Assembly: GCA_964601275.1 (NCBI GenBank)
Contig: CAZRMV010000001.1
Span: 205,290-269,289 of the forward strand
Direction: 5' to 3'
Origin: an uncultured bacterium
Lineage (GTDB): Bacteria; Krumholzibacteriota; Krumholzibacteriia; JAJRXK01
Length of the DNA: 64,000 nt
The notes under the pieces are model-generated. The model saw nothing but the letters and a program-made list of their open reading frames with translations, was not told the origin of the DNA and ran no database searches. Positions 43,832 through 64,000 of this stretch are shown one piece after another. The number at the start of each line of letters is the position of its first letter. Within the stretch, counting starts at the first letter, position 1. The position numbers and the translations under genes were made by a program.

Positions 43832-46800
43832 TCACCGGACCATGGTGAGCTTCCTGGTCTCCACCCGATCGCCCGCTCGCAAGCGCGCGAAGTACACCCC
43901 GCTGGCCAGGGGGCGGCCTCTGCCGTCGCGGCCATTCCAGACCACCTGGTGTTCCCCGGCCGCTTGGTTCGCGTCCAGCAGGTGCACCACCACCCGCCCC
44001 GCGGGGTCGAGGATGCTCAGGGACACCGTGCCGGCGTCGGGCACGCGATAGTCCAGGACGACCCGGGGGTTGAAGGGGTTGGGATGGGCCCGCAAGAGAA
44101 GCGGCCCCCGGCGGATCGCCGGGCTTGCCGTGGCGGTGGTTCCAACGATGCGCACGATCCGGGGAGGGGCGTTGCTGCCGGGGTTGGTGATGCTCTCCGC
44201 GCCGCCGGGATCGAGGATGTAGAGCGAGCCGTCGCTGCCGAAGGCGAGGACATCGCTGCCGTAGAGGTTCTCGAATCCCTCGGCGAAGACCGAGACGCTT
44301 CCGTCCGGCTGCACCACGAGGATGCGTTCGTTCACGGCGTCGGCCAGGTAGGCCACCCCTTCACCGAATGCCCCCCGTGGGGCGAAGGCCACGTCGATGG
44401 CCCCGGAGACCAGCGGATCATCCACCCAGATCGAGACCTTGCCCGCCGCGTCCACCCGGAAGACGCGCCCCGTGGAGCCTCCCTGGAGATCGGGATCGCA
44501 GACGATGAGCTGCCCGGCCCACGGATGACCGGCCGGGGCCGGCGCCATTCCCCGCGGGTTGGTCATGCCGGTTGCCCACAGACTGCCGCTGCCGTCGCCT
44601 GCGATGCGATAGATTCCCCCGCCCTCCGGAGACGAGAGGTAGGCCCAGCCGGCCAGCGCGCCGGTTCCCGTGACCACGGCCTCGCAATGGGTGGGGGAGG
44701 GGAAGAGAACCGACCACACCCCATCGCCGTCCCGCCGCAGCAGGTTCAAGGGCGTCGAGACGAAGAGGTCTCCTCCGAGCTTTCCAGTGGTGTCCTGGTC
44801 GATCGAAAGCACCACGTCGAGGAACTCGGGTCGGACCGCACCACTGGACACCCGCTGGTTCGCGTCGACCTCGAGGATCCTCCGGCGGGTCACGTCCCCC
44901 ACGAGGAGGCGGTCCATGCGGGGGGAGGGTCCCCAGGGGTCGGCGGGAAGGATCTCGACTCCCAGGGGATGATGCAGGTTGAAGGGGGCGCGGACCCGGA
45001 CCGCGAAACCCGGCGGAAGGGTGAGCCCGGCGTTTCCCAGGGCGGAGTGGAACACGCTCTTGAAGGGCACCGGGGTGGCGCTTCCATCCTGCGCGGGGAG
45101 TCCGGCGTCGACGGTCAGTTGCCAGGTGCCGCCGTCAGGCCAGGGGGTGGTGAGGGTGAGCACCGCGGTGTCGCCGTTGCGCCAGCTCAGGTGGAAGGGA
45201 ACGGGAGGGGTGAAGGAGAACCACGCCGAAGAGGAGGCCAGCATCGGCCGGTCGAAGTGGACCTCGATGGGCTGGTTGGGATCCTGGATCCACCCGTCGT
45301 GGTGGGGGTCCACGTTGACGACCCGGGGCGTCGTCGCCGCCGGGTCGAGGGTGAAGAGGTACGCGGAGCGGCTGGGCAACCGAAGGGTGATCTGTCCCCC
45401 CGCCTGCACGGTCACACTTTGCCGGGTTTGCAGTCGGTCATACACCACGGCTCCAACGGGCCAGCGGGCTGTGACAGTGACGGTGGTGTCCTGCCACGAG
45501 GTGTTCATGGCCACCAGGACGTCCCAGGTGAAGTGCTGCGGATGGGTGCGCAGGTACACCAGGGTTCCCGCGTCGTCCGCGTCGGCGGAGAGCACCTGGA
45601 GACCTCCCCGGCGCAGGGCCGCGAGCTCGTGCCGGAGATCCTGCAAGCGTCGGATGAGCGCGTAGAGCGGGGTGGCCATGTTGAAGCCGTCCCCCTGGCT
45701 GGGGCCGAAATCCCACTGGCCGTCCCAGAGATCCTCGCGGTTCCAGGGATCGCCGCCCCCGTCATATTCCTGTTCGGTGCCGTAGTAGACAATGGGCATC
45801 CCCGGCCAGGTCAATAGCCAGGTCAAGGCCTGACGCAAGAGGGTGTCGTCCTGTCTCGCCAAGCCCTGCGCGGCCAGGCGGCCCATGTCGTGGTTGTCGA
45901 AGAAGTTGCCGAGTTGCCACCGGACGCTCGGATCGTAGGAATTCGAATCGCCCATGACCCAGGACAGAATGGCGGGCGCTCCCTGGCCCGAAAACACCCA
46001 CCGGGCGGCGAAGGCCATGGGAAACCAGGTCACCGAGTTCAACGCGTAGGCGCCGCCGCCCTGGGTTCCGGTGTAGATTCCCACCTTGGCCGGGTCTCCG
46101 TCGAAGACTTCGCCCATCAGCAGGAAGTTGTCCTTTCCTTCGGCCGCGGCCGCCGCGCGGATCCGGGGTGCGAAGTCCTGCCAGAAGTCGAGTTCGACGT
46201 GCTTGACCGTATCGATGCGGAAACCGTCACAATCGGTTTGCCGGATCAACTGCGAATAGGCGTCGACCAGGATGTCGCGCACCGCGGGAAGCTCGGTTTT
46301 CAGGTCGTCGAGACCGAAGAGTTCACCGCGGATCTGCTCGGGGTCGGTGAAGTCCTGGATCTCGCCGAAGGAGTGATACCAGGAGAGATCGTCGAATGGG
46401 GGAGGATATCGGTCGCCGTTGTTCCACCAGCCGAGCTGGTAACTCCCCGAGGGATCGTAGGCCGGATAGGCGGGATCCGTTGATCCGATGAGATCGCCCA
46501 TGTGGTTGGCGACCACGTCCAGGATGACGTAGAGCCCCCGGGCATGGGCCGCCTGGACGAAGGTCTGCAACGCGGAGAGTCCTCCCATCTGGGGCGAGAT
46601 CGTGAACAGGTCGCGCGCCGCGTAGCCGTGGTATTCACCGTGCGTGTTGAGAACCACCGGGGAGATCCAGACCGCATCCACCCCCAGGCCTTCGATGTAA
46701 TCCAGCTTCTCCTGCAGGCCCTGGAAGTCGCCCCCGTGCGTACGGCTTCCATCGGCCGGATCGTAGCTGCCTCCCAGATTGTCATTCGATGGATCCCCGT

Positions 46801-46933
46801 TGCGGAAACGGTCGGTCACGATCTGGTAGATGGTGATGTCGCGCCAGGAGGCGGGTGAGGGAGTTCCGGCGAGGGCGGGCGATGTCCAGGTGAGGATCGC
46901 GCCCAGCGCGAGTGCGGTGTGCCGGAGGGTCAT
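43832..46933 (-). CDS. Secreted alpha-amylase-family (GH13) enzyme with a long beta-propeller-like extension and a C-terminal T9SS type-A sorting domain (1033 aa)
   Basis: Signal peptide MTLRHTALALGAILTWTSPALAG. GH13 motifs DVVANHMG, GFRIDTVKHV, EVFDGD, FFDNHD. C-terminus ...NPFNPRVVLDYRVPDAGTVSLSILDPAGRVVVHLLDANQAAGEHQVVWNGRDGRGRPLASGVYFARLRAGDRVETRKLTMVR. Confidence 0.85.
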   Translation of the reverse strand: MTLRHTALALGAILTWTSPALAGTPSPASWRDITIYQIVTDRFRNGDPSNDNLGGSYDPADGSRTHGGDFQGLQEKLDYIEGLGVDAVWISPVVLNTHGEYHGYAARDLFTISPQMGGLSALQTFVQAAHARGLYVILDVVANHMGDLIGSTDPAYPAYDPSGSYQLGWWNNGDRYPPPFDDLSWYHSFGEIQDFTDPEQIRGELFGLDDLKTELPAVRDILVDAYSQLIRQTDCDGFRIDTVKHVELDFWQDFAPRIRAAAAAEGKDNFLLMGEVFDGDPAKVGIYTGTQGGGAYALNSVTWFPMAFAARWVFSGQGAPAILSWVMGDSNSYDPSVRWQLGNFFDNHDMGRLAAQGLARQDDTLLRQALTWLLTWPGMPIVYYGTEQEYDGGGDPWNREDLWDGQWDFGPSQGDGFNMATPLYALIRRLQDLRHELAALRRGGLQVLSADADDAGTLVYLRTHPQHFTWDVLVAMNTSWQDTTVTVTARWPVGAVVYDRLQTRQSVTVQAGGQITLRLPSRSAYLFTLDPAATTPRVVNVDPHHDGWIQDPNQPIEVHFDRPMLASSSAWFSFTPPVPFHLSWRNGDTAVLTLTTPWPDGGTWQLTVDAGLPAQDGSATPVPFKSVFHSALGNAGLTLPPGFAVRVRAPFNLHHPLGVEILPADPWGPSPRMDRLLVGDVTRRRILEVDANQRVSSGAVRPEFLDVVLSIDQDTTGKLGGDLFVSTPLNLLRRDGDGVWSVLFPSPTHCEAVVTGTGALAGWAYLSSPEGGGIYRIAGDGSGSLWATGMTNPRGMAPAPAGHPWAGQLIVCDPDLQGGSTGRVFRVDAAGKVSIWVDDPLVSGAIDVAFAPRGAFGEGVAYLADAVNERILVVQPDGSVSVFAEGFENLYGSDVLAFGSDGSLYILDPGGAESITNPGSNAPPRIVRIVGTTATASPAIRRGPLLLRAHPNPFNPRVVLDYRVPDAGTVSLSILDPAGRVVVHLLDANQAAGEHQVVWNGRDGRGRPLASGVYFARLRAGDRVETRKLTMVR

Positions 46934-47137
46934 CGGTCGAAACCTCGAGGGGAAAGACCTCGACTCCCGCCGGATCTTCCGACTCGAAGGATCGTGCGTT
47001 GCGGTCGAGGAGTGGTCGAGACCACGAGAGTCTAGCACAACCGCGTGGATCCGGCGTTTCTGATTGTCGTTCGCATGGGATCAGGCTAGCCTTGGCGGCA
47101 TGTCGTGTCTGCGCGAAGACGGTCGGGAGGTCCGTGG

Positions 47138-51788: not shown

Positions 51789-53930
51789 ATGAACCGTGTC
51801 CTGCATCGCCGCCGGGCGGAGATCCTCCTCTTCTTCGCGTTCCTGGGGGGGATTCTCCTTCTTGCCACCGGATCCCGTGCCCGGCTCGACACCCCGCACT
51901 CCCCGGTTCCCCGGTCACCTTCGTCGGACGGATCCGCGGCCCCAGGACACACGAGGGGAAATCCCCCCCCACAAGACCCCTGGGAGATCGACATCACCCC
52001 CGGTCTCTCGCGCGAGGTCATCTTCACCAACAAGAAGGCCACCCACTACGCCTGCGACACCTCCGCCCGGGAGATGCGCGCCTACGCCGGCCTGTACACC
52101 AGCATGCACGAGAGCCTGGATGATTTCGTGTGGGCGATCGACGGCCGGGTCCTGGAGCCGGCCGAAGCACTGCGGGTTCGGGTGTGGCCCTGGCTCCTGC
52201 GGCGGGAATACGAGGGGGAATGGGCCGAGGAGGTCTTCCTGCCCCTGGACGAGCCGGTGCTGTTGGTGCGGCTGGAAGGTCCCGGCGGCAAGCGGTGGAT
52301 GTTCACCCCGCGGGTCGATCTGCGCTTCATCTGGGAGACGCCGACTCCCGCCTACGAGACTCGGGAGCTCGACGGTGTACTGTGTATCCGGAGGAAGGGA
52401 TGGCAACCGGGCGCCGGCGCCTACGCCTGGCTCGCGGTCGCGACGAATCCTCCCGGCAGTTTCTTCGGGAACCCGAAGCAGTGGACCTTCACCCACCCCC
52501 GGGATGCCGCGCGCCGCGCAATGGGGCGGACCCACCCCTTCGACCCGGGGGAGATCGCGGGAAAGTGGCCCAAGGACCGAAACGCGGTCGACGTGGCGGT
52601 CGCCCAGGGGGCCTCGGCCGAGGACGCGGCGGAGCTGGCCCGTCGAGCGCTCCAGGAACGAAGAGCCTGGCTGAAGCAGCGGCGCGCCCACGTGGAAGGG
52701 CTTCTGCGGGCCGCCTCGGTGGACCTGGGACGGGAGGAGTGGAACCGCGCCTATCGCTGGGCCCGCGCGAGCATGGACGAGCTGATCATGGACGCGCGGG
52801 GCGAGGGCATCTACGCCGGCTTCCACTGGTTTCCCAACTACTGGGGACGTGACACCTTCATCTGCCTGCCCGGCGCGGCGCTCGACCTCGGCCGGCTCGA
52901 CGCCGCGCGGAGCATCCTGCGCTCCTTCCTGCGCTTCCAACGCACCGACCGCAACGATCCCTTCCTGGGCCGTCTTCCGAACATCGTCAACCCCGGTGCG
53001 TTGCAGTACCAGGGGGTGGACGGCACCTGGTGGCAGGTGCGCGCCAGCTACCGCTACATCCGGGCTCGGCGGGCCCGGGGCGACGCCGATGAAGAGTACG
53101 AACGCGAGTTCGCCGCCGCGCTCTCCTTGATGATCGACGGAGCCGAGCGCAAGGCGGTCGACGAGTACGGCCTGCTGTGCCACGGGGATGGGGAGACCTG
53201 GATGGACGCGGGAGGCTCGGCGCATCCTTTTTCCCCCCGGGGAAACCGGGCGGTGGAAGTCCAGGCGCTTTACTACAACGCCCTGCGGGTGGCCCAGTGG
53301 CTGGCCGGCGAGCAGGGCCGCAGCGAGGAGGCCACCGGGTACGCGACCCTGGCCAGCCGCACCGCCGGCAACTTCCGTGCCCTGTTCTGGAGTTCCCGAC
53401 GGCAGCAGCTCGCCGACCATCTCAACCCCGATGGCAGCGGCGATTTCCAGATCCGCCCCAACACCATCCTGGCGGTCTTCGCCGTGGAGGACGAATGGCC
53501 TCCGCTGCTCACCCGCGGTCAGCTGGAAAGCGTGGTGAACCGCGCCTGGGAGAGGCTGGTGTTGCCCTACGGGGTGACCAGTCTCGACCCCCACGACCCG
53601 CAGTTCAAACCGCGGCACCTCGATCTCGACCACTACCCCTTCGACGCCGCCTACCACAACGGGGACGTGTGGTACTGGCTGAGCGGACCGATGATCCACG
53701 CCCTGTGCAAGGTCGGGCGGGTCGATGATGCCTTGACCCTCGTGCAGCCCCTGGTGGACGAGATGCTCTACCACGGGGCGGTCGGCGCGATCCGGGAGAT
53801 CCGCGACGGCGGGGACACCGGCACGACCGAGGAGTTCGGGGGTGCGACCTTCCAGGCGTGGTCGATGGCCGAGTTCCTCCGGGCCGTCCACGAGGATCTC
53901 GCCCCGGCCCTGGGCTGGCCGGTGCGCTGA
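51789..53930 (+). CDS. Amylo-alpha-1,6-glucosidase (glycogen-debranching-enzyme C-terminal-domain family) with an N-terminal TM anchor
   Basis: First in-frame ATG after the previous gene's stop. N-terminal hydrophobic AEILLFFAFLGGILLLA. (alpha/alpha)6-barrel GDE-type motifs (GFHWFPNYWGRDTFI, WMDAGG, NGDVWYW). Confidence 0.8.
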   Translation: MNRVLHRRRAEILLFFAFLGGILLLATGSRARLDTPHSPVPRSPSSDGSAAPGHTRGNPPPQDPWEIDITPGLSREVIFTNKKATHYACDTSAREMRAYAGLYTSMHESLDDFVWAIDGRVLEPAEALRVRVWPWLLRREYEGEWAEEVFLPLDEPVLLVRLEGPGGKRWMFTPRVDLRFIWETPTPAYETRELDGVLCIRRKGWQPGAGAYAWLAVATNPPGSFFGNPKQWTFTHPRDAARRAMGRTHPFDPGEIAGKWPKDRNAVDVAVAQGASAEDAAELARRALQERRAWLKQRRAHVEGLLRAASVDLGREEWNRAYRWARASMDELIMDARGEGIYAGFHWFPNYWGRDTFICLPGAALDLGRLDAARSILRSFLRFQRTDRNDPFLGRLPNIVNPGALQYQGVDGTWWQVRASYRYIRARRARGDADEEYEREFAAALSLMIDGAERKAVDEYGLLCHGDGETWMDAGGSAHPFSPRGNRAVEVQALYYNALRVAQWLAGEQGRSEEATGYATLASRTAGNFRALFWSSRRQQLADHLNPDGSGDFQIRPNTILAVFAVEDEWPPLLTRGQLESVVNRAWERLVLPYGVTSLDPHDPQFKPRHLDLDHYPFDAAYHNGDVWYWLSGPMIHALCKVGRVDDALTLVQPLVDEMLYHGAVGAIREIRDGGDTGTTEEFGGATFQAWSMAEFLRAVHEDLAPALGWPVR

Positions 53931-54168: not shown

Positions 54169-57100
54169 ATGATGCCCCCCCGTATGAATCGACCGGCCCT
54201 GGCCGCCATCCTCCTGCTGGGCCTCGCACTGCTCTGCGCGTCGACCTGCTGGGCTACTCCGGTGACCTTCCGTTTCGAGAGTTCCGCCCAGCGGGTGTTC
54301 CTGGCGGGTGAGTTCAACAACTGGTCGGACAGTGCACAACCGATGACCCAGGGAGAGGACGGCATCTGGAGTGTCACCCTCGACCTCGCGCCGGGAGACT
54401 ACCAGTACAAGTACGTGGCCGACGGTACCTGGATCACCGACCCCCACAGCGTCGACACCACCGACGACGGGTTCGGCGGGAAGAACAGCATCGTCCACGT
54501 GGGCAAGGACGCCATGACCGTCGGGGTGGGCGCTGCGGCGGGAACGGCCGGCGCGAAAGCCGCCGCCGAGGGGGCGGAAGCCGTGGGTGGCGGAAAGAAT
54601 GCCCAGGGGAACGCCGGGGTCCAGGCCAAGGCCGGCCAGCGCCTGGTGCATTTTGGGATCTCCGCCCCCGGTGCAGGCAGCGTCTACCTGGCCGGTGAAT
54701 TCAACGGCTGGAACGCCAGCGGCGAGAAAATGGAGGACCCCGACGGGGACGGGGTGTTCGAAGTGACCCTTCCGTTGAAGCCGGGGCGCTACCAGTACAA
54801 GTACGTGATCGACGGCACCTGGAAGGAGGATCCGGCCAGCGCCGAGTACGCCGATGACGGTTTCGGAGGCAAGAACAGCGTGGTCGCCGTCGTGGCGGGC
54901 GACGGCGTGCAGGAGGCCGCCGCCGGTAGCGGCGGGGCGGGGCCTGGGGGCGGAGCACAGGGAGCGGCCGGCACCGAGGGGGCGTCTGGAGCTTCGGGAA
55001 CCACTGGAGGGGAGGCGGTGCACGGCACCTTCAGTGTCACCTTCAGCTACCAGCCGGTGATCTCCGGGGTGGGCTCGGTGATGCTCGCGGGGACCTTCAA
55101 CGACTGGAACGTGGGCGCCACTCCCATGACCGACCCCGATGGGGATGGGACCTACACCGCCACCCTGCTGTTGCCGGCGGGCGAATACCAGTACAAGTTC
55201 GTGGTCGACGGCAACTGGATCACCGACGAGAAGGCCACCGCCTTCGCCGATGATGGCTTCGGGGGCAAGAACAGTGTCATCACCGTCGATGCCAGCTACG
55301 AGAAGATGGACCTGGAGGTCGGCGACGGCAGAATCTACCTGAAGGGACTGGAGGTCGTTCTCGACTATCCCACCGTCAACGCGGTCGACGAAGGGCAGCT
55401 CCTGCTACGGGCGAAGGCCTACCGCGACGATATCCAGGAACTGCGGCTGCACTACCGGGTGGGCGATGGAGAGCCCCAGACGGTGCCGATGCTGGCGGCG
55501 GAGAAGGATCCGGTCTTCGTGACCTACCGCCGGCCGCTCGAGTTCACCGGCGACGGTGATCTGCGCTTCACCTTCGAGTACCGCGACGCAAACACGCATC
55601 GCTTTGCCACCGCGTCGGGAGACTTCACGGAGACCCTTCCTCCGACCGACCAGTGGGTCCTCTACAACGAGAAGATCCTTCCTCCGTTCCGCATTCCGAT
55701 GTGGGCCCAGCAGGGCATCTACTACCAGATCTTCCCCGATCGTTTCCTCAACGGTGACCAGAGCAACGACCAGGACTTCCAGGAGCCCTACTACCAGGGC
55801 CGCAACGAACTGCCCGCGTCGGGCAAGACCAATGGCGAGTATTTCCATTTTGTCGAGGACTGGGACGATGTTTCCGGTCTGGTGAAGAGCCCCTATCGCA
55901 CCGACGGCAAGCCCGACTACTTCAGTTTCTACGGTGGGGATATCGAGGGCGTGCGCCAGAAGATCCCCTACCTGAGGGATCTGGGGATCACCATCATCTA
56001 CTTCAACCCGGTCACCGATGCTCGAAGCAACCATCGCTACGACCCCTGTGACTATCTCAAGCTCGACCCGCACCTGGGCACCGAGGACCAGTTCAAGGCC
56101 TTCACCGAAGAGTGCGCGGAGAACGGCATCCGGGTGATCATCGATATGGCCTTCAACCATACCGGCGACTGTCATTTCGCGTTCCAGGACGCGCTGAAGA
56201 AGTGGAAGGAGAGCAAGTACTTCAACTGGTACGAGTGGAAGAAGCGTCCACCCAGCTATCCCCTGCCGCCGGGCGAGAAAGCCATCGACTACTACGACTG
56301 CTGGTGGGGCTTCGGGTTGCACCCGAATCTCAACTACGACCTCAGCCGGCCCAATGCCCAGGAGAACGGGATCAAGGACACCAAGGATGCCGATCCGAAC
56401 TGGGACGTGGTCAACTACGTCCTGAAGGTTCCGGCGTACTGGATGGGAGAGTTGGGGGTTTCCGGTTTCCGCCTGGATGTTCCCAATGAAGTGCCGTTCT
56501 GGTTCTGGAGACTCTTCCGGGAGAAATGCCGCGAGGTGAAGCCCGACCACGTGCTCATCGGCGAGATCTGGGGCGATGCCCGCCAGTGGATCGGACCGGA
56601 GGTCTTCGATGCGGTGATGAACTACCGTTATTTCAAGGATCCGGTGGTGAAGTGGATCGGTCAGAAGAAGGGCAACAGCGCCACCTTCGACCAGGAACTC
56701 GCCGGAGGACGCACCCGGTACCCCCTGCAGGCAGTGCGGGCCCAGATGAATCTCATCGACAGCCACGACACCCGCCGCTTCTTGAGGGTCGCCGGGGAAG
56801 ACGCCCGCCGGCTGCGGCTGGCCGCGACCTTTGCCATGACCTACGTGGGAGCCCCCCATATCTACTACGGCGATGAACTGGCCCTGACCGGAGGCAAGGA
56901 CCCGGATTGCCGCCGAACGATGCCCTGGTCGACGATGGACGCGCCGGCCCGCCAGGAGACCTTGCGGCATTACCAGGAGTTGACCCGCCTGCGCCGCGAG
57001 CACGACGCGCTCAGCCTGGGTGATTTCATTCCCGTGCTCACCCAGGGGCAGGTGTACGCCTATCTGCGGGTCGAGGGCGATGACAAGGTGCTGGTGGTGT

Positions 57101-57273
57101 TGAACAACGGGGAGGCTCCGGCCTCGGTGGTGGTTCCGGTGGGCAACGCCCGGATTCCCGACGGAACCTCGATCGAATTCCTCCTTGGAGAGGGCGAGGC
57201 GACCACGGTGACCCGAGGGGCGGTGAAGCTGCAGGTGCCCGGGGTGGACGCGGTGATCGTCGCCTTGCGGTGA
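54169..57273 (+). CDS. Secreted GH13 alpha-glucanase (neopullulanase/cyclomaltodextrinase-like catalytic domain) preceded by three tandem CBM48/AMPK-beta-type glycogen-binding modules
   Basis: AGGAG SD. Signal peptide MMPPRMNRPALAAILLLGLALLCASTCWA. Three repeats of F...AGEFN.W.....PMT...DG.....L.L.PG.YQYKYV.DG.W..DP......DDGFGGKNS. GH13 motifs IDMAFNHTGD, GFRLDVPNEV, GEIWGD, IDSHDTRR. Confidence 0.9.
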   Translation: MMPPRMNRPALAAILLLGLALLCASTCWATPVTFRFESSAQRVFLAGEFNNWSDSAQPMTQGEDGIWSVTLDLAPGDYQYKYVADGTWITDPHSVDTTDDGFGGKNSIVHVGKDAMTVGVGAAAGTAGAKAAAEGAEAVGGGKNAQGNAGVQAKAGQRLVHFGISAPGAGSVYLAGEFNGWNASGEKMEDPDGDGVFEVTLPLKPGRYQYKYVIDGTWKEDPASAEYADDGFGGKNSVVAVVAGDGVQEAAAGSGGAGPGGGAQGAAGTEGASGASGTTGGEAVHGTFSVTFSYQPVISGVGSVMLAGTFNDWNVGATPMTDPDGDGTYTATLLLPAGEYQYKFVVDGNWITDEKATAFADDGFGGKNSVITVDASYEKMDLEVGDGRIYLKGLEVVLDYPTVNAVDEGQLLLRAKAYRDDIQELRLHYRVGDGEPQTVPMLAAEKDPVFVTYRRPLEFTGDGDLRFTFEYRDANTHRFATASGDFTETLPPTDQWVLYNEKILPPFRIPMWAQQGIYYQIFPDRFLNGDQSNDQDFQEPYYQGRNELPASGKTNGEYFHFVEDWDDVSGLVKSPYRTDGKPDYFSFYGGDIEGVRQKIPYLRDLGITIIYFNPVTDARSNHRYDPCDYLKLDPHLGTEDQFKAFTEECAENGIRVIIDMAFNHTGDCHFAFQDALKKWKESKYFNWYEWKKRPPSYPLPPGEKAIDYYDCWWGFGLHPNLNYDLSRPNAQENGIKDTKDADPNWDVVNYVLKVPAYWMGELGVSGFRLDVPNEVPFWFWRLFREKCREVKPDHVLIGEIWGDARQWIGPEVFDAVMNYRYFKDPVVKWIGQKKGNSATFDQELAGGRTRYPLQAVRAQMNLIDSHDTRRFLRVAGEDARRLRLAATFAMTYVGAPHIYYGDELALTGGKDPDCRRTMPWSTMDAPARQETLRHYQELTRLRREHDALSLGDFIPVLTQGQVYAYLRVEGDDKVLVVLNNGEAPASVVVPVGNARIPDGTSIEFLLGEGEATTVTRGAVKLQVPGVDAVIVALR
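54259..55287 (+). repeat. Three tandem ~85-aa CBM48-like domain repeats (nt 54259-54498, 54637-54891, 55027-55287) separated by Gly/Ala-rich linkers
   Basis: Protein-level repeat with conserved LAGEFN.W / PG.YQYK(Y/F)V.DG.W / DDGFGGKNS blocks, seen directly in the translation. Confidence 0.7.
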
Positions 57274-57522: not shown

Positions 57523-60500
57523 ATGCGCGTCGTTCCCTCCCGTCGCACCCTGGACGTGCTTCTTTCTCCACCGCCTCCCTCCGGCGCGCTACGTATCGCT
57601 CTCGTTGGCACCCTGGGGTGGCTTCTCGCCCTGGGCATGGCTCCCACTCCGGCCGCCATGGCCACCACCTGGAACACGCCCATCGTCGATGGCCCCATCC
57701 ACGACCTCCCCGATTCCAATGACTGGCAGCCGGACGAGCTCTTCTTCGAGGACCCGGCGGGAGACAGCAACTGGGGACCCTTCAACGACTTGCAGGGACT
57801 GTGGGTCACCTGGGACGAGAACGGTCTGTATGTCGGGGTGAGCGGGCAGCTCTGGGACACCGCCGGTCCGGGCACCGGGGGCAACTCGGTCAACGTCTAC
57901 CTCGATGTCGATTTCGGGCGGGGCACCGGGATCTCCAACATGGACGCGATCGACCCGAACGCCTTGGGCGCGGTCACCCGCAATCTCTGGAGGCCGCTCC
58001 AGGTCGGCGGCGGCTTCGGCGCCGATTTCGGGTTCACCTCGTGGGCGGGCACCTACGATCGGGGGATCCTCGATCTCTTCGATCCGCTTCTGCCGGTGAA
58101 TCTCATCACCGACGAGAGCCGGCAGGTCGGGGTGAATCAGCCCTGTCTCGACCCGACCGGCCCCTGCCAGGGTTTCGACAAGCAGGGAAACTTCTCCTTT
58201 GAATTCTTCATCCCCTGGCACGATCTCTACGCCCGGCTCTATCCGAACCTGACCACGACCGTCCCTCCCGGGGCGGCGATCGCCCTGGTGGTGAACATCG
58301 TCGGCGGCGGTGATTCGATGTCGGAGGAGTCGATTCCCTCGCAATCGACCTTCCGGGTGATCGACCGGCCGGTCACCCTGGTGGTCGACGCCGATGCCGA
58401 CGGGGTGCCCGACCGGGACTGGCCTCCCTCGGGCAGTATCTCGGGAACCGTGAACTTGAGCGATCCGGCGGACACCACCACCGTGGTCGACGTAGTGGCC
58501 TGGCTGCCCGACGGAACCGAAGCCGCGCGCGACCAGACGCCCCCGGGAGGGGGCGCCTACCAGCTGACCCGCCTGGGCGCCGGGGATTATACCGTCGGTA
58601 TCGAGAGCATCTTCTACGTGGCCAATCCGCAGACCGTGCAAGTGGGAGAGAACCAGGATGTCACCGGAATCGACTTCGACGCCTTGCGGGTGCGCAGCGG
58701 GATCGATCTGCGGCTGCGCTACCTGGACGGTCCGGAGAGCAGCTCACGCAGCCTCGATCTGGCGTTCCGGCTGAGCGGGCGCACCGATCTGGGATCGGAT
58801 TTCTCGGTCGATTTCATCATTGGACCGCAGGATTCCCTGGTGGTGGGTCTGCGCCCGGTCCCCGCCGGCGACTATCACCTGAGCGTGGTGCCCCAGTGGC
58901 CCACGTCGCAACCGGTACCCGATCCGCAACGCTCCGGATATACCCGCATCGAACGGGATCTGCGGGTCCCCGACAACGATGGCATCGTCGATCTGGGCAC
59001 CTTGGACCTGAAGGTGGTGCGGCCCACCCAGGTGGCGTTCTTCGCTCCCGACGAGACGGGCGACGGAGAGCGGATCACCGCGGATTTCACTACGGTGAGT
59101 CTCCCCTCGGAGAACTTCTACGCCTACCTGGTGGTGGAGGCCGGGTTCGTCGACGACGAGGGAAACGAAGCGATCTACGGCCTGCCGGGGCTGCAGATCA
59201 CCACCACCACCATGGATCCGGCGTTTGCGACCCAGGGAGTGGTCGAACTGTGGTCGGCGGCGGACACCACCCGCAGCGCCCAGCCGCTGGCCGATCCCTC
59301 GGTGTGGCTACCCCCTTCGGGCGAGCCACCGGTGGGGAGGGCCCGTTTCCTGTTGACCGACGACGCCCAGGAGGTCGTTCGTCTCTTCGCCGCGGGCAGC
59401 GGGATGGACGGCGTCCTCGAGGTGGGGGTCCAGCCCATCGAGCCGGCCGAGATCGCCCTGTCCGCCCAGGGCGATGCGATGGTGGCCGGGGCACAGATCC
59501 CGCTGCAGGGGCGGCTGCTGGACGTGGCCGGCAACCCGGTGTTCCTCAACGAGTTCCTGGTCTTCTTCGATATCACCCCGAATGTTCCGGGGGTGGGTCC
59601 CAGTCTCGCCGTCACCGCGAGCGACGGTTCGTTCGGCACCGATGGCGACGTGGCCTTCACCACCACGGTGAGCGGCGACTACACCGTGCAAGCCAAAGGC
59701 ACCACCGACTCGGGGAAGGATATCGTCTCGCCCCAGCTCGCCTTCCATGTGGCCCCGGATCTCCCCTACCAGCTGGAACTGGTCGCCGAGTTGAAGAAGG
59801 TGGACGGCAGCCCGGTGGGGCTGAGCTATCGCGTCCGGCAGACCGACCGGTTCGAGAATTCCTCGCCGGCCACCGGGGTCACGGTGCAGATCCAGGCCGG
59901 TCCGCCGGAGATCGTGGCCTCGGCTCCGGCCAGCGTCGTCCTGGACGACGCGGACGCGACCGGGACCTTCGATGTGCAACTCGTTCCGGGAAGAACCGGG
60001 GTGGTCGAGTGCACCGTGACCGTGCCGGGTCTCGCCCGGCAAAGCACCACCCTGCGCACCCCGGTGCTTTTCGGCCTGGTGGCCACCGACGAGGTGGCGC
60101 CCGAGAGCGACACGAACCACAACGCGAATCCGGACATCGATCTGACCGCGTTGTACGCGTTCAGCCAGAACGACACCCTCGTGGTGAAGCTTCCATTTCG
60201 CAGCAACTTCAACGGCGCCCACATGGCGCTCCTGTTGGAATCGACGGGAACCCCCGAGGGAGCGGTCGGCGACTATTTCGGCTTTCCCATCTTCTACCTG
60301 CACGACCTGTTGCCCGATTTCGTCTTCACCTACAAGTACGCCGCCGACGATTACGCCGACCTGCGGCGGCCGCCTCCGGGGGGCGATCCCAGCCAATGGC
60401 AGTGGTACGATATGCAGGCTGCCGCCTGGGTCAGCGAATTCAATGACAATGTGAACGCCAAGGCGCAGGGTTGGGTGTCCAAGGACGAGAGCGCGGTCAC

Positions 60501-63258
60501 CTTCCGCATTCCCTTGACGGTGCTCGGTGGGGGTTTCACCGCGGGTCGCGATACCCTCCGGGCGCAGGTGTACGTGATGCAGGAAGACGGGGGCGAGAAG
60601 AGGCCGGCCCTCGATTCGGTGCCCCACGACGCCACCGTGGACATGGTGCCCCCTCCCGGGGCGGGAGAATGGTGGGAAAATCTTCCGCCGCGCGTCGACC
60701 TGAAGAACTGGGCCGTCTTCGTGCCCGAGGTCTTGCCCGGGCTGTTGAGCCTGGAAGATGTCGCGTTCGATCCTCCCGAGGTCACCCAGGGGGAGACCAC
60801 TCTCTTGACCGCGCGTCCGGTGATCGATGTCCAGGCGGTCCCCGATCCCATCTTCCAGGTCTTTGCCGATTTCTCCCGCTTCGGAGGCGACGCGCTCACT
60901 CCCATGGACGACGAGGGCCGAAACGGCGATCTCGTGGCGGGAGACGGCATCTACAGCGTCGAATTGACCATCGATCCTTCCGAACTCGAAGGGGACGCCG
61001 CCATTCTCGTCCAGGCCACCGAACTCAATTCGGGGGAAAGGGCCTCGGCCACCGCCGACCTGGCGATCACCGGGCAGCCCCAACTGCAACCCATCTTGAG
61101 CTTCGACGACCCCGCGGGGGACGATCACGGCCCCAATCATCCAGGGGAGAAATTCCTCTACTACACCTATCCCACCAACGGCGTCTTCTTCCCCGGTGTG
61201 TTCGACCTGTTGGGCATGCAGGTCTTCGATGCGGGCGAGAAGCTGGTGTTCCGGGTCGATGTGGGCGAAGTCACCGACCCCGCCCAACCCGACGCGGCCA
61301 ACTGGAATGCGCCGTTCCCGACCGACCAGTTGTGTCCCGAGGGTTCCCGCATCGACCTGAACCTGCAGAACGTGGTGGTTCTCATCGACAACATTCCCGG
61401 GAAGGGTTCGATCAAGCTGCCCGACAACCGTTGGGCCGATGTCGCCCGGCAGGACGCCTGGGATTACGCGGTGATCGCCGACGGCTGGTGGAAGGGGATG
61501 GTGCGCAGCAACGGATCGTCGTCTTCGGGAAGTTGGGACATCTTCCGCAACGACGAGGACTATTTCTTCTGTGTCAACGCCATCGACAACACCATCGACA
61601 TGTTCGTGGACAAGAAGGTCCTCGAAGTGGGAGGGCTGAGCGGAGCGGAACTGCAAGAGGTGATCGACCAATGGGACTTCATCGTCCTGATGAGCGGGCA
61701 CGATGGCGATTCCAACGACAACAACTGGGGAGGGATCCGTTGGGTCAACGAGGGCCGGCCGCAGTGGCAGTTCGGCGGGGGCAAGAACGGAGAGTCGGGC
61801 CGGGAGCGTGACGCCAACATCATCGACATCATGACCCACGCGGGGCTCGACCCCACCGGGAAGCCGAAGCCGCCCGGCCGGCCCCAGGAGGAGCAACTCG
61901 ACTTCACCACCCCGGAAGCCGAGCGCCGCTTCTCCGACCCCAAGATCCTGGTATCGGTCGAGTTGGAGGCCGAGGAGCTCATCGACAACGTCCCCCCCCA
62001 GATCACCTTCCTGAACGATCCCGATCGCGCCCTGCGGCAGTGGGCCATCCTCAAGGGAGCGCCGGTCTCTCCCATCGTGCGGATCGAGGACGACAACGAC
62101 GTGGTCTCGGCGAAGATGCGCTGGCGCGGAGTAGGAGAACCCCGGAGCGCGGCCCGCGAAGCGCCGCTCGGCCTCTTGCGCAGCGATCTGGACAGCGATG
62201 GGGTCACCTTCATCGGCGACGTGCCTTTCGAGCAGTTCAGCGACCCTTCGGTGACGAACCTGGTATCCCGGTTGAAGCCGGATGGCACCATCGAGAAGGT
62301 GCGGTACATGATCCTCTCGTTCGAGGCGGTCGACCGGGTTGGGAACGCCACCCCCCAAAGCAGCACCGAATACCTGCTCGAGGTTCCCGAACAGCCGGTC
62401 GAGGAAGTGATCCAGTCGGTGCTTCCCGATTCCCTGGAGGAAGGCGGCACCGATCCGGTGCAATTCGACCTGCCCGAGGGAAGCCGCCTTCGCCTGCCGC
62501 GTGGGTTCGTCGATGATCTCTTCGCGCGCGATGACAGCTCACGGGTGGAATTGCGGTACCGCGCGTTCGCCCTGGAGGATCTCGACCTGGCTCCGCACGG
62601 CGGAAGCAACCCGAGCGTCCTGCTTCCGGAGAACCGCTATCTGCAGGCGGCCCGGTCGTTCCAGCTCTTCTGGGTCCATGGAGACAGCACGGTCGAGGAG
62701 ATCCAACAGCTTCCCGAATCGGCCGAGTTCTCCATCCACTTCCCCCATTTCCTGATCGAAGGGGAAAGCCCGCCCAATCTCCAGTACTTCCACTACAGCG
62801 AAGCGTCGAAACGCTGGGTCCTGGTGGGAGGCCATAGCGAGGTCGAGGGCAGCACCTTGACCGCCGAGGTGGTGGAGACCGGTCTGTATGGGGTCTTCAC
62901 CAAGGGATCGAAGCTCAAGGACGAGACCCTGGTCACCGGTCTGCAGTTGTCGCCGAATCCGTTCTCGCCCAACGGGGATGGAGTGCACGATTTCCTGAAC
63001 ATCAGCTATGTGATTCCCGACCAGATCAACCAGGTCGTGGTCGAGATCTACGACCTGCGGGGTGAGAAGGTTCGCACCCTCCAGCTCTTCGAGGGAATCG
63101 GAGATGTGACGAACCGTACCACCGGCCTGGTGTGGGACGGACGCGATGAGCGGGGCAACTATGTTCCCATGGGTATCTACGTCTGCCGGGTCGAGGTGGA
63201 GGGGAAGTTCCTAAAGCGCTGGGAACGGGCGACCGCGGCGGTGGTGGTGGTACGATGA
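57523..63258 (+). CDS. Giant secreted multidomain protein (1911 aa) with a C-terminal T9SS/FlgD-Ig-like sorting domain; function unknown, possibly a cell-surface carbohydrate-binding or adhesin scaffold
   Basis: ATG 57523 (GAAGGGG SD). Signal peptide MRVVPSRRTLDVLLSPPPPSGALRIALVGTLGWLLALGMAPTPAAMA. A related D-P-A-G-D...GP... module appears twice, near residue 100 and near residue 1230. C-terminus ...NPFSPNGDGVHDFLNISY...GLVWDGRDERGNYVPMGIYVCRVEVEGKFLKRWERATAAVVVVR. Confidence 0.8.
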   Translation: MRVVPSRRTLDVLLSPPPPSGALRIALVGTLGWLLALGMAPTPAAMATTWNTPIVDGPIHDLPDSNDWQPDELFFEDPAGDSNWGPFNDLQGLWVTWDENGLYVGVSGQLWDTAGPGTGGNSVNVYLDVDFGRGTGISNMDAIDPNALGAVTRNLWRPLQVGGGFGADFGFTSWAGTYDRGILDLFDPLLPVNLITDESRQVGVNQPCLDPTGPCQGFDKQGNFSFEFFIPWHDLYARLYPNLTTTVPPGAAIALVVNIVGGGDSMSEESIPSQSTFRVIDRPVTLVVDADADGVPDRDWPPSGSISGTVNLSDPADTTTVVDVVAWLPDGTEAARDQTPPGGGAYQLTRLGAGDYTVGIESIFYVANPQTVQVGENQDVTGIDFDALRVRSGIDLRLRYLDGPESSSRSLDLAFRLSGRTDLGSDFSVDFIIGPQDSLVVGLRPVPAGDYHLSVVPQWPTSQPVPDPQRSGYTRIERDLRVPDNDGIVDLGTLDLKVVRPTQVAFFAPDETGDGERITADFTTVSLPSENFYAYLVVEAGFVDDEGNEAIYGLPGLQITTTTMDPAFATQGVVELWSAADTTRSAQPLADPSVWLPPSGEPPVGRARFLLTDDAQEVVRLFAAGSGMDGVLEVGVQPIEPAEIALSAQGDAMVAGAQIPLQGRLLDVAGNPVFLNEFLVFFDITPNVPGVGPSLAVTASDGSFGTDGDVAFTTTVSGDYTVQAKGTTDSGKDIVSPQLAFHVAPDLPYQLELVAELKKVDGSPVGLSYRVRQTDRFENSSPATGVTVQIQAGPPEIVASAPASVVLDDADATGTFDVQLVPGRTGVVECTVTVPGLARQSTTLRTPVLFGLVATDEVAPESDTNHNANPDIDLTALYAFSQNDTLVVKLPFRSNFNGAHMALLLESTGTPEGAVGDYFGFPIFYLHDLLPDFVFTYKYAADDYADLRRPPPGGDPSQWQWYDMQAAAWVSEFNDNVNAKAQGWVSKDESAVTFRIPLTVLGGGFTAGRDTLRAQVYVMQEDGGEKRPALDSVPHDATVDMVPPPGAGEWWENLPPRVDLKNWAVFVPEVLPGLLSLEDVAFDPPEVTQGETTLLTARPVIDVQAVPDPIFQVFADFSRFGGDALTPMDDEGRNGDLVAGDGIYSVELTIDPSELEGDAAILVQATELNSGERASATADLAITGQPQLQPILSFDDPAGDDHGPNHPGEKFLYYTYPTNGVFFPGVFDLLGMQVFDAGEKLVFRVDVGEVTDPAQPDAANWNAPFPTDQLCPEGSRIDLNLQNVVVLIDNIPGKGSIKLPDNRWADVARQDAWDYAVIADGWWKGMVRSNGSSSSGSWDIFRNDEDYFFCVNAIDNTIDMFVDKKVLEVGGLSGAELQEVIDQWDFIVLMSGHDGDSNDNNWGGIRWVNEGRPQWQFGGGKNGESGRERDANIIDIMTHAGLDPTGKPKPPGRPQEEQLDFTTPEAERRFSDPKILVSVELEAEELIDNVPPQITFLNDPDRALRQWAILKGAPVSPIVRIEDDNDVVSAKMRWRGVGEPRSAAREAPLGLLRSDLDSDGVTFIGDVPFEQFSDPSVTNLVSRLKPDGTIEKVRYMILSFEAVDRVGNATPQSSTEYLLEVPEQPVEEVIQSVLPDSLEEGGTDPVQFDLPEGSRLRLPRGFVDDLFARDDSSRVELRYRAFALEDLDLAPHGGSNPSVLLPENRYLQAARSFQLFWVHGDSTVEEIQQLPESAEFSIHFPHFLIEGESPPNLQYFHYSEASKRWVLVGGHSEVEGSTLTAEVVETGLYGVFTKGSKLKDETLVTGLQLSPNPFSPNGDGVHDFLNISYVIPDQINQVVVEIYDLRGEKVRTLQLFEGIGDVTNRTTGLVWDGRDERGNYVPMGIYVCRVEVEGKFLKRWERATAAVVVVR

Positions 63259-64000
63259 GGAAACGAGCTTCGATCCTCTGCGTTCTCACCGCACTCTCGC
63301 TGTTGCCGGCGACAAGCGCATGGGCCGAATTCATCGACCAGGAGGTGGGCGCGCGCGGCCAGTCGATGGGCGGCGCCTACGTGGCCATGAGCGGTGATCC
63401 TTCGAGCCTGTTCTGGAATCCGGCCGCCATCGTCAATCGCGAGCATTCGGTGCTGGTGGAAGGGATGCGTACTTCCCTGTACGACGGGGTGGAAGGCTTG
63501 AGCGAGGACTTCATCGGGGCTTCCATGCAGTTCGCCGGACGGTTCGCGGTGGGCCTGGGATGGACCCGCACCGGATTGGAACAGCTGTACCACGAGGACG
63601 TTCTCAGCGGTGGAGTGGCCATGTCCACGGGGGAAGGTCGATTCTCGATCGGCGCCTCAGCGCTCTTCTTCGGGGCCTCCGCTCCCGGTTACGTCGACCT
63701 CAACGACCCCAACTACGCCGGCGATCAGTGGGCGGGGTCCTTCAGCCTGGGGCTGCTCTACCGGCCGAGCGGGAAGCTGAGCTTCGGCGCCAGCTTCGAG
63801 AACCTGCTGCGGCCGACCATCCAACTGGTGTCCACCAGCACCGACGTGAAGGAGATCGGCGGACGCCGCCGCTTCGGGATGGCCTACCGGCTGGAAGACG
63901 TGATCTGGCTCACCGTGGAAGTCCGCCATCATGATATTCCCGAGTATGTCGACGGAAACTGGACCGCCCACTTCGGCGGAGAAGCGTGGTTCCAGAAGGT
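63255..64000 (+). CDS. PorV/FadL-like outer-membrane beta-barrel protein, 3' partial (runs off the window); translationally coupled to the giant protein gene
   Basis: Not in the ORF track because it is incomplete. ATG 63255 overlaps TGA 63256-58 (ATGA). Signal peptide MRKRASILCVLTALSLLPATSAWA. N-terminal motif GARGQSMGGAYVAMSGDPSSLFWNPAAI resembles the PorV/FadL N-terminus (GMGD.GVA..D....WNPA). Confidence 0.6.
   Translation, partial: MRKRASILCVLTALSLLPATSAWAEFIDQEVGARGQSMGGAYVAMSGDPSSLFWNPAAIVNREHSVLVEGMRTSLYDGVEGLSEDFIGASMQFAGRFAVGLGWTRTGLEQLYHEDVLSGGVAMSTGEGRFSIGASALFFGASAPGYVDLNDPNYAGDQWAGSFSLGLLYRPSGKLSFGASFENLLRPTIQLVSTSTDVKEIGGRRRFGMAYRLEDVIWLTVEVRHHDIPEYVDGNWTAHFGGEAWFQK

Follow-up and report, generated by a model that had tools for sequence, protein, structure and literature searches.

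Two overlapping genes at the end of the stretch of DNA analysed here (64,000 nucleotides from an uncultured bacterium, hereafter the window) probably encode a cognate pair belonging to type IX (T9SS-like) sorting, in which a giant cargo protein would be carried and anchored by the outer-membrane barrel encoded immediately downstream, and which heads an alpha-glucan utilisation locus.

Results

The giant open reading frame ends at 63258 and has two possible starts, a GTG at 57433 and an ATG at 57523, the latter giving 1,911 residues (Table 1). The ATG appears to be the sensible start because it yields a signal peptide (...LLALGMAPTPAAMA/TTWNTP) and because the L006 orthologue likewise has one, followed by TYNRPTIDG. 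The public gene call begins at 57658 (1,866 residues), by which the signal peptide would be lost, and it is for this reason that exact-sequence look-ups of the protein from 57523 and from 57433 found no public match. The overlap of the stop codon with a downstream ATG, reported in a preliminary description of this DNA, is confirmed: positions 63250-63259 read gtacgATGAg, with the TGA at 63256-58 overlapping the ATG at 63255-57, and the same 4-nt overlap is present in the gene calls of two relatives of about 55% identity (L088 and L089; giant gene end 10004, barrel gene start 10001). Giant orthologues in the relative loci are about 32-33% identical and occupy the equivalent position; in the more distant ones the gap to the barrel gene is roughly -9 to +56 nt, an estimate extrapolated from tblastn matches.

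Table 1. Features of the giant-barrel locus and its upstream neighbours (window coordinates).
Feature	Position	Strand	Basis
GH13 (GlgB/TreZ-like), type A T9SS sorting domain, no adjacent barrel gene	39951..42905	-	TIGR04183; Pfam FlgD_ig, Por_Secre_tail
MalK-type ABC transporter ATPase	42605..43789	-	Pfam ABC_tran, OB_MalK, TOBE_2
GH13 enzyme, FlgD_ig-type tail, no adjacent barrel gene	43832..47038	-	Pfam
GDE_C amylo-alpha-1,6-glucosidase-type enzyme, 713 aa in public gene calls	51789..53930	+	Pfam GDE_C, E 5e-68; L001 gene call
GH13 alpha-amylase/pullulanase-like enzyme with CBM48 and X25 modules, directly upstream of giant gene	54169..57273	+	Pfam
Giant surface protein gene	57523..63258	+	ORF and translation; Pfam Glucodextran_C, CHU_C, FlgD_ig; orthologues in same position in relative loci
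Predicted Sec signal peptide, residues 1-47, ...PAAMA/TT	57523..57663	+	Inferred by reading the sequence; L006 orthologue comparable
N-terminal divergent Glucodextran_C/DOMON-like module, residues 48-300, contains EDPAGDSNWGP	57664..58422	+	HHalign against residues 1185-1445
Weak Big_1 (bacterial Ig-like) match, residues 771-844	59833..60054	+	Pfam E 0.0026, below threshold
Well-conserved middle domain, residues 868-1095	60124..60807	+	Six-sequence orthologue alignment, up to 52% identity
Glucodextran_C domain, residues 1191-1441, begins DDPAGDDHGPNHPG	61093..61845	+	Pfam PF09985, 102.4 bits, E 3.5e-29
C-terminal beta-sandwich tail, CHU_C/FlgD_ig type, residues 1811-1911, NPFSPNGDG...IYDLRG...WDGRDERG...VVVVR	62953..63255	+	Pfam
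ATGA start/stop overlap, giant gene/barrel gene	63255..63258	+	Sequence; overlap also in L088 and L089 gene calls
PorV-like outer-membrane barrel gene, 5' 248 codons of 296 aa	63255..64000 (window end cuts gene)	+	Complete in L003:10001-10891

The duplicated DPAGD...GP module noticed earlier in the giant protein is real. Its second copy is the Pfam Glucodextran_C domain, far above the threshold of 22 bits; the divergent first copy was detected only by HHalign of orthologue profiles, in which residues 48-300 match residues 1185-1445 with a probability of 98.5% (E 3.4e-15, 183 columns). Among the matches listed, a relative of 81% identity is named 'glucodextranase DOMON-like domain-containing protein' by NCBI, and at the level of annotation the two modules may be taken to bind glucan. 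The giant protein contains no recognised catalytic domain and found no matches among PDB sequences. The wider region around the Big_1 match may be read as Ig-like spacers; the orthologues show weak or faint matches to Big_1 and Invasin_D3. The middle domain, among the best-conserved blocks of the protein, has no Pfam match and is related by HHalign to neither Glucodextran_C copy, while the central segment used as a homologue query found at least four proteins.

T9SS C-terminal domains of type B are modelled by Pfam CHU_C (PF13585) and NCBIfam TIGR04131, those of type A by TIGR04183/PF18962. The giant protein had been proposed as cargo with such a domain, and its tail does pass the Pfam threshold for the type B signal: the last 120 residues (1792-1911) score 39.3 bits on CHU_C and 33.5 bits on FlgD_ig (cut-off 27 each), and the full-length protein 32.1 and 31.1 bits. 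It stays below both NCBIfam cut-offs, with 19.1 bits on TIGR04131 (cut-off 35) and 13.3 bits on TIGR04183 (cut-off 23). The tail is kept in all giant orthologues. The two GH13 tails in the window that lack an adjoining barrel gene both match FlgD_ig and neither matches CHU_C; that of the GlgB/TreZ-like enzyme scores 41.8 bits on TIGR04183, against the cut-off of 23.

The frame of the downstream gene reads MRKRASILCVLTALSLLPATSAWA/EF...GGAYVAMSGDPSSLFWNPAAI and leaves the window after 248 codons. Extension through identical public contigs (L001, L003) gives the full gene, which encodes 296 residues ending ...TVNLSF. Its product had been called PorV/FadL-like. The PorV/PorQ part of this stands in so far as the NCBIfam family model NF033709 aligns over its whole length (profile positions 4-326 of 326, 63.5 bits, E 2.5e-17), but the protein misses the cut-off of that model (90), that of the PorP/SprF model (TIGR03519; 13.9 bits, cut-off 90.55) and the gathering threshold of the FadL/TodX family (Pfam Toluene_X, PF03349; 19.4 bits against 29.7, residues 28-63 only). 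On the narrower models it scores 24.1 bits for PorV (NF033710, cut-off 250), 15.0 bits for PorQ (NF033711, cut-off 220) and 46.4 bits for PorV2 (NF052325, cut-off 325); the latter two matches and the best stretch of the first are confined to the N-terminal motif region. The weak Pfam matches of 38 family members are mixed, to Toluene_X (23), TraF_2 (19), PorP_SprF (PF11751; 19, best E 3.9e-6), PorV (13) and UPF0164 (13). A profile of 38 homologues searched against all PDB sequences gave a single significant match, PorV of Flavobacterium johnsoniae (E 1e-4), with FadL, TodX and TbuX absent even at E <= 1. The structure prediction proposed for the barrel gave an AlphaFold2 model (pLDDT 86, pTM 0.80) that has the 14-strand FadL fold with an N-terminal hatch, and the closest solved structure is PorV. 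The protein stops at its last strand, its mature sequence holds no cysteine, and the Cys-X-Cys C-tail of SprF is absent.

The pair is the head of a conserved module, the rest of which consists of an ABC importer, a lipoprotein with CBM48 and two more proteins of the outer membrane. The order giant gene, barrel gene, p507, p767, p263 and sugar ABC importer recurs, complete or to the contig end, in 11 relative loci with 33-55% barrel identity (L006 and L007, whose calls are identical, L008-L013, L029, L088 and L089), and the giant-barrel adjacency is strictly kept across all of them. Of these, p507 is a barrel of about 24 strands, p767 a CBM48-fused outer-membrane protein and p263 a lipoprotein with two CBM48 domains and a lipobox cysteine; a substrate-binding protein and two permeases come after p263. 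The C-termini of p507 and p767 carry conserved aromatic residues, and no homology between the two is detectable (HHalign probability 12.7%). By fold, p507 is most like the 24-strand usher pores FimD and PapC; its profile found no matches among PDB sequences, and its homologues were found only in orthologous starch loci, not beside other tail-barrel pairs. The preliminary description had missed this module beyond the pair. The glucan-degrading context that it did report is real, with three GH13 genes, one GDE_C gene and one MalK-type ATPase gene in the window, and the position of the GH13 gene directly upstream of the giant gene is also kept in L088 and L089.

Pairs of this type are found well beyond the relatives. 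Using an HMM of the giant tails and counting same-strand ORFs that end -30 to +400 nt upstream, we found a tail-bearing ORF directly upstream of a distant barrel relative in 34 of 69 loci; elsewhere there were only 22 tail-bearing ORFs in about 1.1 Mb. CHU_C is matched by 33 of 42 barrel-adjacent tails. The cargo proteins of the 34 loci are unrelated to one another, and the pairs were seen in metagenome-assembled genomes (MAGs) labelled, with taxon labels that can be wrong, as Eisenbacteria, Elusimicrobiota, FCPU426, Poribacteria, Coatesbacteria, Aerophobetes, Calditrichaceae, Cloacimonadota and Ignavibacteria. Since the pairing of a tail gene with a barrel gene recurs across so many phyla, the claim that the locus represents a new arrangement was overstated. 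Paralogous barrels in the relative genomes score 104-195 bits on the PorV/PorQ family model, and these genomes hold further pairs whose barrels exceed its cut-off (L046, 159 bits; L075, 195 bits). These genomes also hold weak PorZ-like C-terminal matches next to PorQ-like barrels.

An NCBIfam scan of all larger ORFs found none of the T9SS core genes (SprA/Sov, PorK/L/M/N, PorU) in the window, nor were any found in the scanned relative loci. The neighbourhoods of PorV paralogues in Eisenbacteria MAGs, scanned in the same database, likewise contained no core gene, only further tail-barrel pairs. In the accessible literature we found no paper joining Eisenbacteria or Krumholzibacteria with the T9SS, and in the accessible text of the Elusimicrobia paper examined the term 'type IX secretion' appears only in the reference list.

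Discussion

Cargo of type B needs cognate PorP/SprF-like barrels, which also anchor it and are often genetically linked to it (PMC12618676; PMC9143113; PMC10994853), and in SprB/SprF-type pairs the barrel is both required for secretion and the surface anchor (PMC12618676; PMC9143113). The analogy with SprB and SprF drawn earlier fits these published pairs because the giant tail passes CHU_C and the adjacency of the two genes is strictly conserved; a gene adjoining its cognate type B tail cargo is a PorP/SprF-like trait, and the barrel gene displays it both in the ATGA overlap and in the 11 relative loci. On the cargo and carrier reading, the giant protein would cross the inner membrane by the Sec route, and its CHU_C/FlgD_ig-type beta-sandwich would be recognised, together with the 296-residue PorV-like barrel, at an outer-membrane translocon presumably of the SprA type. 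The cargo would leave the translocon bound to the barrel through its tail and would then be held by it on the outside of the cell, much as SprB is on SprF and PorZ on PorQ. There the two Glucodextran_C/DOMON-like modules, raised on Ig-like spacers, may capture starch, glycogen or pullulan, which would be cut by surface GH13 enzymes bearing type A tails. The co-transcribed p507, p767 and p263 would then carry oligosaccharides across the outer membrane for import by a MalEFGK-type ABC system.

Several observations count against this reading. The barrel falls below every curated family cut-off and the tail below both NCBIfam cut-offs, and no T9SS core gene was found in the window or the scanned relative loci. 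Compared with the F. johnsoniae PorV sequence in the PDB file (402 residues), the barrel is also short by about 100 residues, and in PorV it is the extracellular loops that reach into the SprA pore (PMC10994853). The giant protein shows no recognised catalytic domain, and its binding of glucan is suggested at the level of annotation. Finally, it has no SprF-like Cys-X-Cys tail, though this motif is needed for attachment to the gliding track and not for carriage (PMC12635249).

The wide occurrence of the pairs invites a bolder idea, which we regard as unlikely: that tail cargo plus cognate PorV-like barrel is an ancient display module of many phyla, working without or predating the canonical T9SS of Bacteroidota, and that in an Eisenbacteria/Krumholzibacteria-like lineage it was built into an undescribed starch outer-membrane machine made of the plugless p507 barrel, the CBM48-fused outer-membrane protein and the CBM48 lipoprotein. 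A related proposal, to our minds decidedly unlikely, is that display is a two-part affair independent of the T9SS, in which the tail would bind the barrel that is its partner while export would proceed without a SprA translocon, possibly through p507. It would account for the lack of core genes in the sequences examined, for the pairs in MAGs labelled Elusimicrobiota, FCPU426, Poribacteria, Coatesbacteria and others, phyla for which the accessible part of the literature yielded no description of a T9SS, and for the resemblance of p507 to usher pores. However, the restriction of p507 to starch loci fits glucan uptake better than secretion, and the above-cut-off type A sorting domains and PorV/PorQ-family barrels of these genomes argue for a T9SS-like machine; moreover, taxon labels of MAGs can mislead, and the absence of core genes is an observation on the sequences examined.

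Little credence attaches to the idea that the barrel is a FadL/TodX-type channel for a hydrophobic or amphipathic compound or for oligosaccharides, and a mere operon neighbour on which no tail docks. The Toluene_X match covers about 35 N-terminal residues where the PorV/PorQ model aligns in full, the PDB profile search recovered PorV and none of the channels, and mutually unrelated cargo beside barrel relatives in about half of the distant loci is not something that a starch-locus substrate channel predicts. The operon, besides, already has two larger barrels as candidates for such a channel. There is a still slimmer chance that the barrel is the general PorV shuttle of the organism for all type A tail cargo, encoded here by accident. 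PorV is indeed its top match in both structure and PDB sequence, and genes for several enzymes with type A tails lie close by, yet its scores lie below the PorV equivalog and PorV/PorQ family cut-offs, while paralogous barrels in related genomes reach 159-195 bits. Among about 19,000 superfamily matches, its own small clade accounts for 68 representatives at E <= 1e-30. The barrel gene is tied to the giant gene wherever the surroundings were read, with the 4-nt overlap here and in L088 and L089, and the giant tail is of the CHU_C type, unlike the type A tails of its neighbours. That the barrel is a BamG-like accessory which assembles the large barrels of the operon, rather than an anchor for the giant protein, is highly improbable, as no NCBIfam BamG match was found at E <= 0.1 and its adjacency to tail-bearing ORFs in loci without p507 and p767 would be left unexplained.

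Cognate cargo and carrier pairs are a subject of current interest in type IX secretion, although work on them has, to our knowledge, been confined to Bacteroidota and has dealt mainly with adhesins. If the cargo and carrier-anchor reading is right, the principle extends to a new lineage, a candidate phylum, and to a new job. The locus is a clean, conserved example of a carrier-like barrel closer to PorV/PorQ than to PorP/SprF, paired with a putative scaffold for polysaccharide capture in an alpha-glucan uptake operon without SusC/SusD, and it offers a natural test of what determines the specificity of tail for carrier. It is also a possible model of how uncultured relatives of the FCB superphylum acquire starch, and the wide occurrence of tail-then-barrel pairs is a lead on the reach of T9SS-type sorting, or of a simpler ancestor, beyond Bacteroidota.

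Among known systems, SprB/SprF of F. johnsoniae and PG1035/PorP of Porphyromonas gingivalis show the same layout, with a very large CHU_C-type surface protein encoded directly upstream of a barrel of about 300 residues. The pair described here differs from SprB/SprF in that the barrel is closer to PorV/PorQ and has no periplasmic Cys-X-Cys tail, the giant tail does not reach the TIGR04131 cut-off, the cargo belongs to a glucan locus and is not a gliding adhesin, and the lineage, a candidate phylum, lies outside Bacteroidota. PorV itself (PDB 6H3I chain F and 8GL6 chain F), the type A shuttle, shares with the barrel the 14-strand FadL fold, the hatch, the GxGGA...D...WNPA motif and the C-terminal strands; however, the two are only about 20% identical, and PorV is shared between cargoes whereas this barrel is dedicated by gene order to one. 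In the PorQ-PorZ and PorV-PorU complexes of P. gingivalis the tail of a tail-bearing protein is retained and the protein remains attached to a barrel of the PorV/PorQ family, although these are components of the machine (sortase, A-LPS delivery) and the giant protein is a putative substrate-binding surface protein; we know of no translational coupling of their genes in P. gingivalis. Compared with FadL, TodX and TbuX, the barrel has a Toluene_X match that is below threshold and limited to the N-terminus, and its genomic partner is tail-bearing cargo instead of hydrocarbon or fatty-acid catabolism. The Sus locus of Bacteroides (SusCDEFG) unites starch binding and GH13 amylase activity at the cell surface with transport across the outer membrane and with the import and degradation steps that follow. 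The present locus would combine the same functions, with p263 as the CBM-bearing analogue of the SusE/F lipoproteins, but in place of a SusC/SusD pair it has the PorV-like barrel, a barrel of about 24 strands without a plug and an outer-membrane protein fused to CBM48. Attachment to the surface would be by T9SS-type tails, and import across the inner membrane by a MalEFGK-type ABC system.

Results

The long open reading frame that ends at position 63258 of the window (G+C 65.8%) could start at GTG 57433 or ATG 57523, and from the latter it encodes the giant protein of 1,911 aa. ATG 57523 yields a plausible Sec signal (...LLALGMAPTPAAMA, followed by TTWNTP) and agrees with orthologous giant proteins in which TYNRPTIDG comes after a signal peptide. 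In public gene calls (Logan, JGI) the gene starts at ATG 57658, which is 45 codons too short and loses the signal peptide. Positions 63250-63259 read gtacgATGAg, and the giant gene's TGA (63256-58) therefore overlaps the ATG (63255-57) of a second signal-peptide gene, as the preliminary description had stated. This second frame begins with MRKRASILCVLTALSLLPATSAWA, then EF and GARGQSMGGAYVAMSGDPSSLFWNPAAI, and is cut by the window end after 248 codons. The extension of the contig envisaged there was carried out using public contigs identical to the window, including a 535-kb JGI contig, and gave a product of 296 aa ending in ...TVNLSF. These contigs were reached by exact look-up of the upstream GH13 protein; exact look-ups of the giant protein returned no match. 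The JGI identifiers of the source MAG are 3300023503 and, for the contig, Ga0256915_100001.

This 296-aa product, referred to here as the barrel, had been described as PorV/FadL-like. It aligns end to end with the NCBIfam PorV/PorQ family (positions 4-326 of 326, 63.5 bits, E 2.5e-17) without reaching the cut-off of 90, and lies far under the cut-offs of the PorV, PorQ, PorV2 and PorP/SprF models. The Pfam FadL family (Toluene_X) matches residues 28-63 only (19.4 bits), and 38 members of the barrel family give a mixture of weak Pfam matches (Toluene_X 23, TraF_2 19, PorP_SprF 19, PorV 13 and UPF0164 13). Searched against all PDB sequences, the family profile has one significant match, F. johnsoniae PorV (E 1e-4), and FadL-family chains are absent from that search even at E <= 1. 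An AlphaFold2 model built from a 38-sequence alignment (pLDDT 86, pTM 0.80) is a 14-strand barrel with an N-terminal hatch of ~35 residues, for which Foldseek ranks PorV first (6h3i_F and 8gl6_F, E 3.7e-12, TMq 0.72) with TbuX, TodX and FadL behind; FadL-type channels are structurally nearly as close as PorV. Taken together, the family alignment, the profile match and the model identify a FadL-fold protein that is nearest to PorV. With scores under the PorV/PorQ, PorP/SprF and FadL thresholds, the barrel is formally a member of none of the three. It forms its own clade between the named families; an exhaustive profile search returned ~18,900 representatives at E <= 1e-3 and only 68 at E <= 1e-30.

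The C-terminus of the giant protein matches both CHU_C, the type B T9SS signal in Pfam (32.1 bits), and FlgD_ig (31.1 bits), each above its 27-bit threshold in the full protein, and CHU_C rises to 39.3 bits when the last 120 residues are scanned alone. The same tail is under the NCBIfam cut-offs for type B (TIGR04131, 19.1) and type A (TIGR04183, 13.3). Further upstream, Pfam places Glucodextran_C at residues 1191-1441 (E 3.5e-29), and alignment of orthologue profiles relates residues 48-300 to residues 1185-1445 (HHalign 98.5% probability, E 3.4e-15). The protein therefore carries two Glucodextran_C (DOMON-like) modules, which confirms and names the duplicated DPAGD...GP module noticed earlier. 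Weak Ig-like signals (Big_1, Invasin_D3) lie between the two copies, and residues 868-1095 form a well-conserved middle domain with no family or PDB match. No catalytic domain was found in the giant protein, and an 81%-identical fragment from a Krumholzibacteria-labelled MAG is named "glucodextranase DOMON-like domain-containing protein" by NCBI.

The order giant protein, barrel, p507, p767, p263 and ABC importer recurs, as far as each contig extends, in the orthologous loci L006 and L007 (whose gene calls are identical), L008-L013, L029, L088 and L089 (the last from GCA_041493075.1). Identity there is 33-55% for the barrel and ~32-33% for the giant protein, the 4-nt overlap is retained in the two ~55% relatives, and every orthologous giant protein has the same tail. 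Those relatives that are named are MAGs carrying the label Candidatus Eisenbacteria or Effluviviaceae; in NCBI taxonomy, Eisenbacteria and Krumholzibacteriota are both candidate phyla separate from Bacteroidota. At L006, a 42%-identity locus, the enzyme set differs while the outer-membrane module stays fixed (see table).

Coordinates of features in the window, its identical contig and related loci
Feature	Location	Characteristics
1,428-aa ORF	window 1905-6191 (-)	five separate stretches match NCBIfam 'F510_1955 family glycosylhydrolase'; weaker match to photosystem II assembly factor Ycf48; unrelated to giant/barrel pair
792-aa ORF	window 27215-29593 (-)	coding-like GC3; no Pfam or NCBIfam match
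954-aa ORF	window 29548-32412 (+)	coding-like GC3; no Pfam or NCBIfam match
Two GH13 enzymes	window (-)	FlgD_ig tails, one also matching Por_Secre_tail
MalK ATPase	window (-)	
GDE_C enzyme; GH13 enzyme	window, upstream of giant gene (+)	GH13 enzyme with CBM48 and X25 modules
Giant protein	window 57523-63258	
Barrel	L003:10001-10891	
p507	L003:10906-12429	beyond window end, 15 nt 3' of barrel gene; signal peptide
p767	L003:12450-14753	signal peptide; N-terminal CBM48/AMPK glycogen-binding module; ~650 further residues; conserved terminal Phe
p263	L003:14766-15557	lipoprotein; lipobox Cys; two CBM48 modules; sugar-binding protein and two permeases next
Enzyme set of L006	L006:18629-20879	after ABC genes: stand-alone 256-aa Glucodextran_C protein and GH57 with CBM48; no GH13 there
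Tail ORF, then barrel	L017:3117-9701, 10001-10816	
Tail ORF, then barrel	L066:2314-9942, 10001-10843	
Tail ORF, then barrel	L059, L067, L081	with L017 and L066, examples from the distant loci L015-L086
Four consecutive ORFs, Eisenbacteria MAG	L075:4843-12571	TonB-dependent-receptor-like protein; 826 aa with weak PorZ-like C-terminal match; PorQ/PorV-family barrel (195 bits); GWxTD-domain protein
Conserved Eisenbacteria trio	L030:6872-13419, L034:3-6394, L043:6760-13338	~1,020-aa tail protein; ~310-aa barrel; ~830-aa protein with weak ComEA-like N-terminus

On L003, a public contig identical to the window that continues beyond its end, five tightly packed same-strand genes encode the barrel, p507 (507 aa), p767 (767 aa), p263 (263 aa) and a sugar-binding protein accompanied by two permeases. 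p507 has no Pfam, NCBIfam or PDB sequence match, and in its AlphaFold2 model (pLDDT 81.7) ~24 strands form a barrel that lacks a separate plug domain; the closest folds belong to large barrels of a generic kind (the ushers FimD and PapC, and TonB-dependent transporter barrels; TMq 0.45-0.53). Outer-membrane proteins typically end in an aromatic residue, and conserved aromatic residues terminate both p507 and p767; the latter probably combines an outer-membrane barrel with a starch-binding module. Homologues of p507 turned up in the orthologous starch loci alone, with none beside other tail-barrel pairs, which favours a part in glucan uptake over one in secretion.

To assess how general the pairing is, an HMM made from the orthologous giant tails was run on the C-terminal ends of 3,370 ORFs, read in six frames from 80 loci of GTDB genomes in which barrel relatives occur at 23-43% identity. 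A pair was counted where the gap from the end of a tail ORF to the barrel gene following it on the same strand was between -30 and +400 nt; the count covered the 69 non-orthologous loci whose upstream sequence was 400 nt or longer. In 34 of these 69, a tail-bearing ORF lies directly upstream of the barrel gene, and only 22 such ORFs occur elsewhere in ~1.1 Mb. The arrangement had been put forward as new, but it is widespread among barrel relatives and hence not unique. The barrel-adjacent tails (n=42) match CHU_C (33), FlgD_ig (34) and Por_Secre_tail (14). Pair-carrying MAGs are labelled Eisenbacteria, Elusimicrobiota, FCPU426, Calditrichaceae, Cloacimonadota, Ignavibacteria, Cytophagia/Bacteroidetes, Coatesbacteria, Poribacteria, Aerophobetes, Myxococcales and "Thermotogae" (labels as given). 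Other Eisenbacteria loci have pairs in which the barrel scores above the PorV/PorQ cut-off, and one such barrel (159 bits) sits after an M6-like metalloprotease whose tail is of type A. The barrel of the L030 trio, the only trio scanned, scores 85 bits, just under that cut-off. At L075 the 826-aa protein and the adjoining barrel may be an attachment-complex-like pair. Within the window, one of the two minus-strand GH13 tails scores 41.8 bits with TIGR04183; neither matches CHU_C or has an adjoining barrel gene.

Discussion

In Bacteroidota, PorV carries type A tails, while type B tails emerge from the SprA translocon attached to their cognate PorP/SprF-like barrels. These barrels, often encoded in genetic linkage with the cargo genes, keep the cargo anchored at the surface (PMC10994853, PMC12618676, PMC9143113). 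The anatomy described here fits the type B scheme and we therefore read the giant protein and the barrel as a cognate pair of cargo and carrier-anchor, which we consider, with some reservation, the best explanation of the data. The giant protein would then be an alpha-glucan-capturing scaffold, exported as cargo of the barrel and working alongside surface GH13 enzymes, and the outer-membrane set of p507, p767 and p263 with a MalEFGK-type importer would complete the glucan pathway. We infer that the tail binds the barrel, that a translocon of the SprA type is used, that glucan is bound and that the channels act as proposed. No T9SS core genes were detected in the window or the scanned relative loci, and in the literature searched no account of T9SS turned up for Eisenbacteria or Krumholzibacteria, nor for Elusimicrobiota, FCPU426, Poribacteria or Coatesbacteria. 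For Elusimicrobia, four papers contain both terms, one of them in its reference list alone.

The earlier observation of the pair is confirmed, and its interpretation is partly supported. What is new is the barrel clade itself, the use of a PorV-like barrel clade for a polysaccharide-capture scaffold, and a starch-uptake operon without SusC/D that is headed by the giant/barrel pair; the reach of tail-barrel pairs across many phyla is a new lead. Compared with known systems, p263 resembles the starch-binding lipoproteins SusE/F, in a locus without SusC/D. The barrel is ~100 residues shorter than F. johnsoniae PorV (402 residues) and, unlike SprF, has no Cys-X-Cys tail, a gliding feature that is dispensable for carriage. 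The Bacteroidota type B scheme is matched by the Sec signal, the CHU_C-type tail, the gene overlap with a PorV-like barrel of 14 strands and the strict co-conservation of the two.
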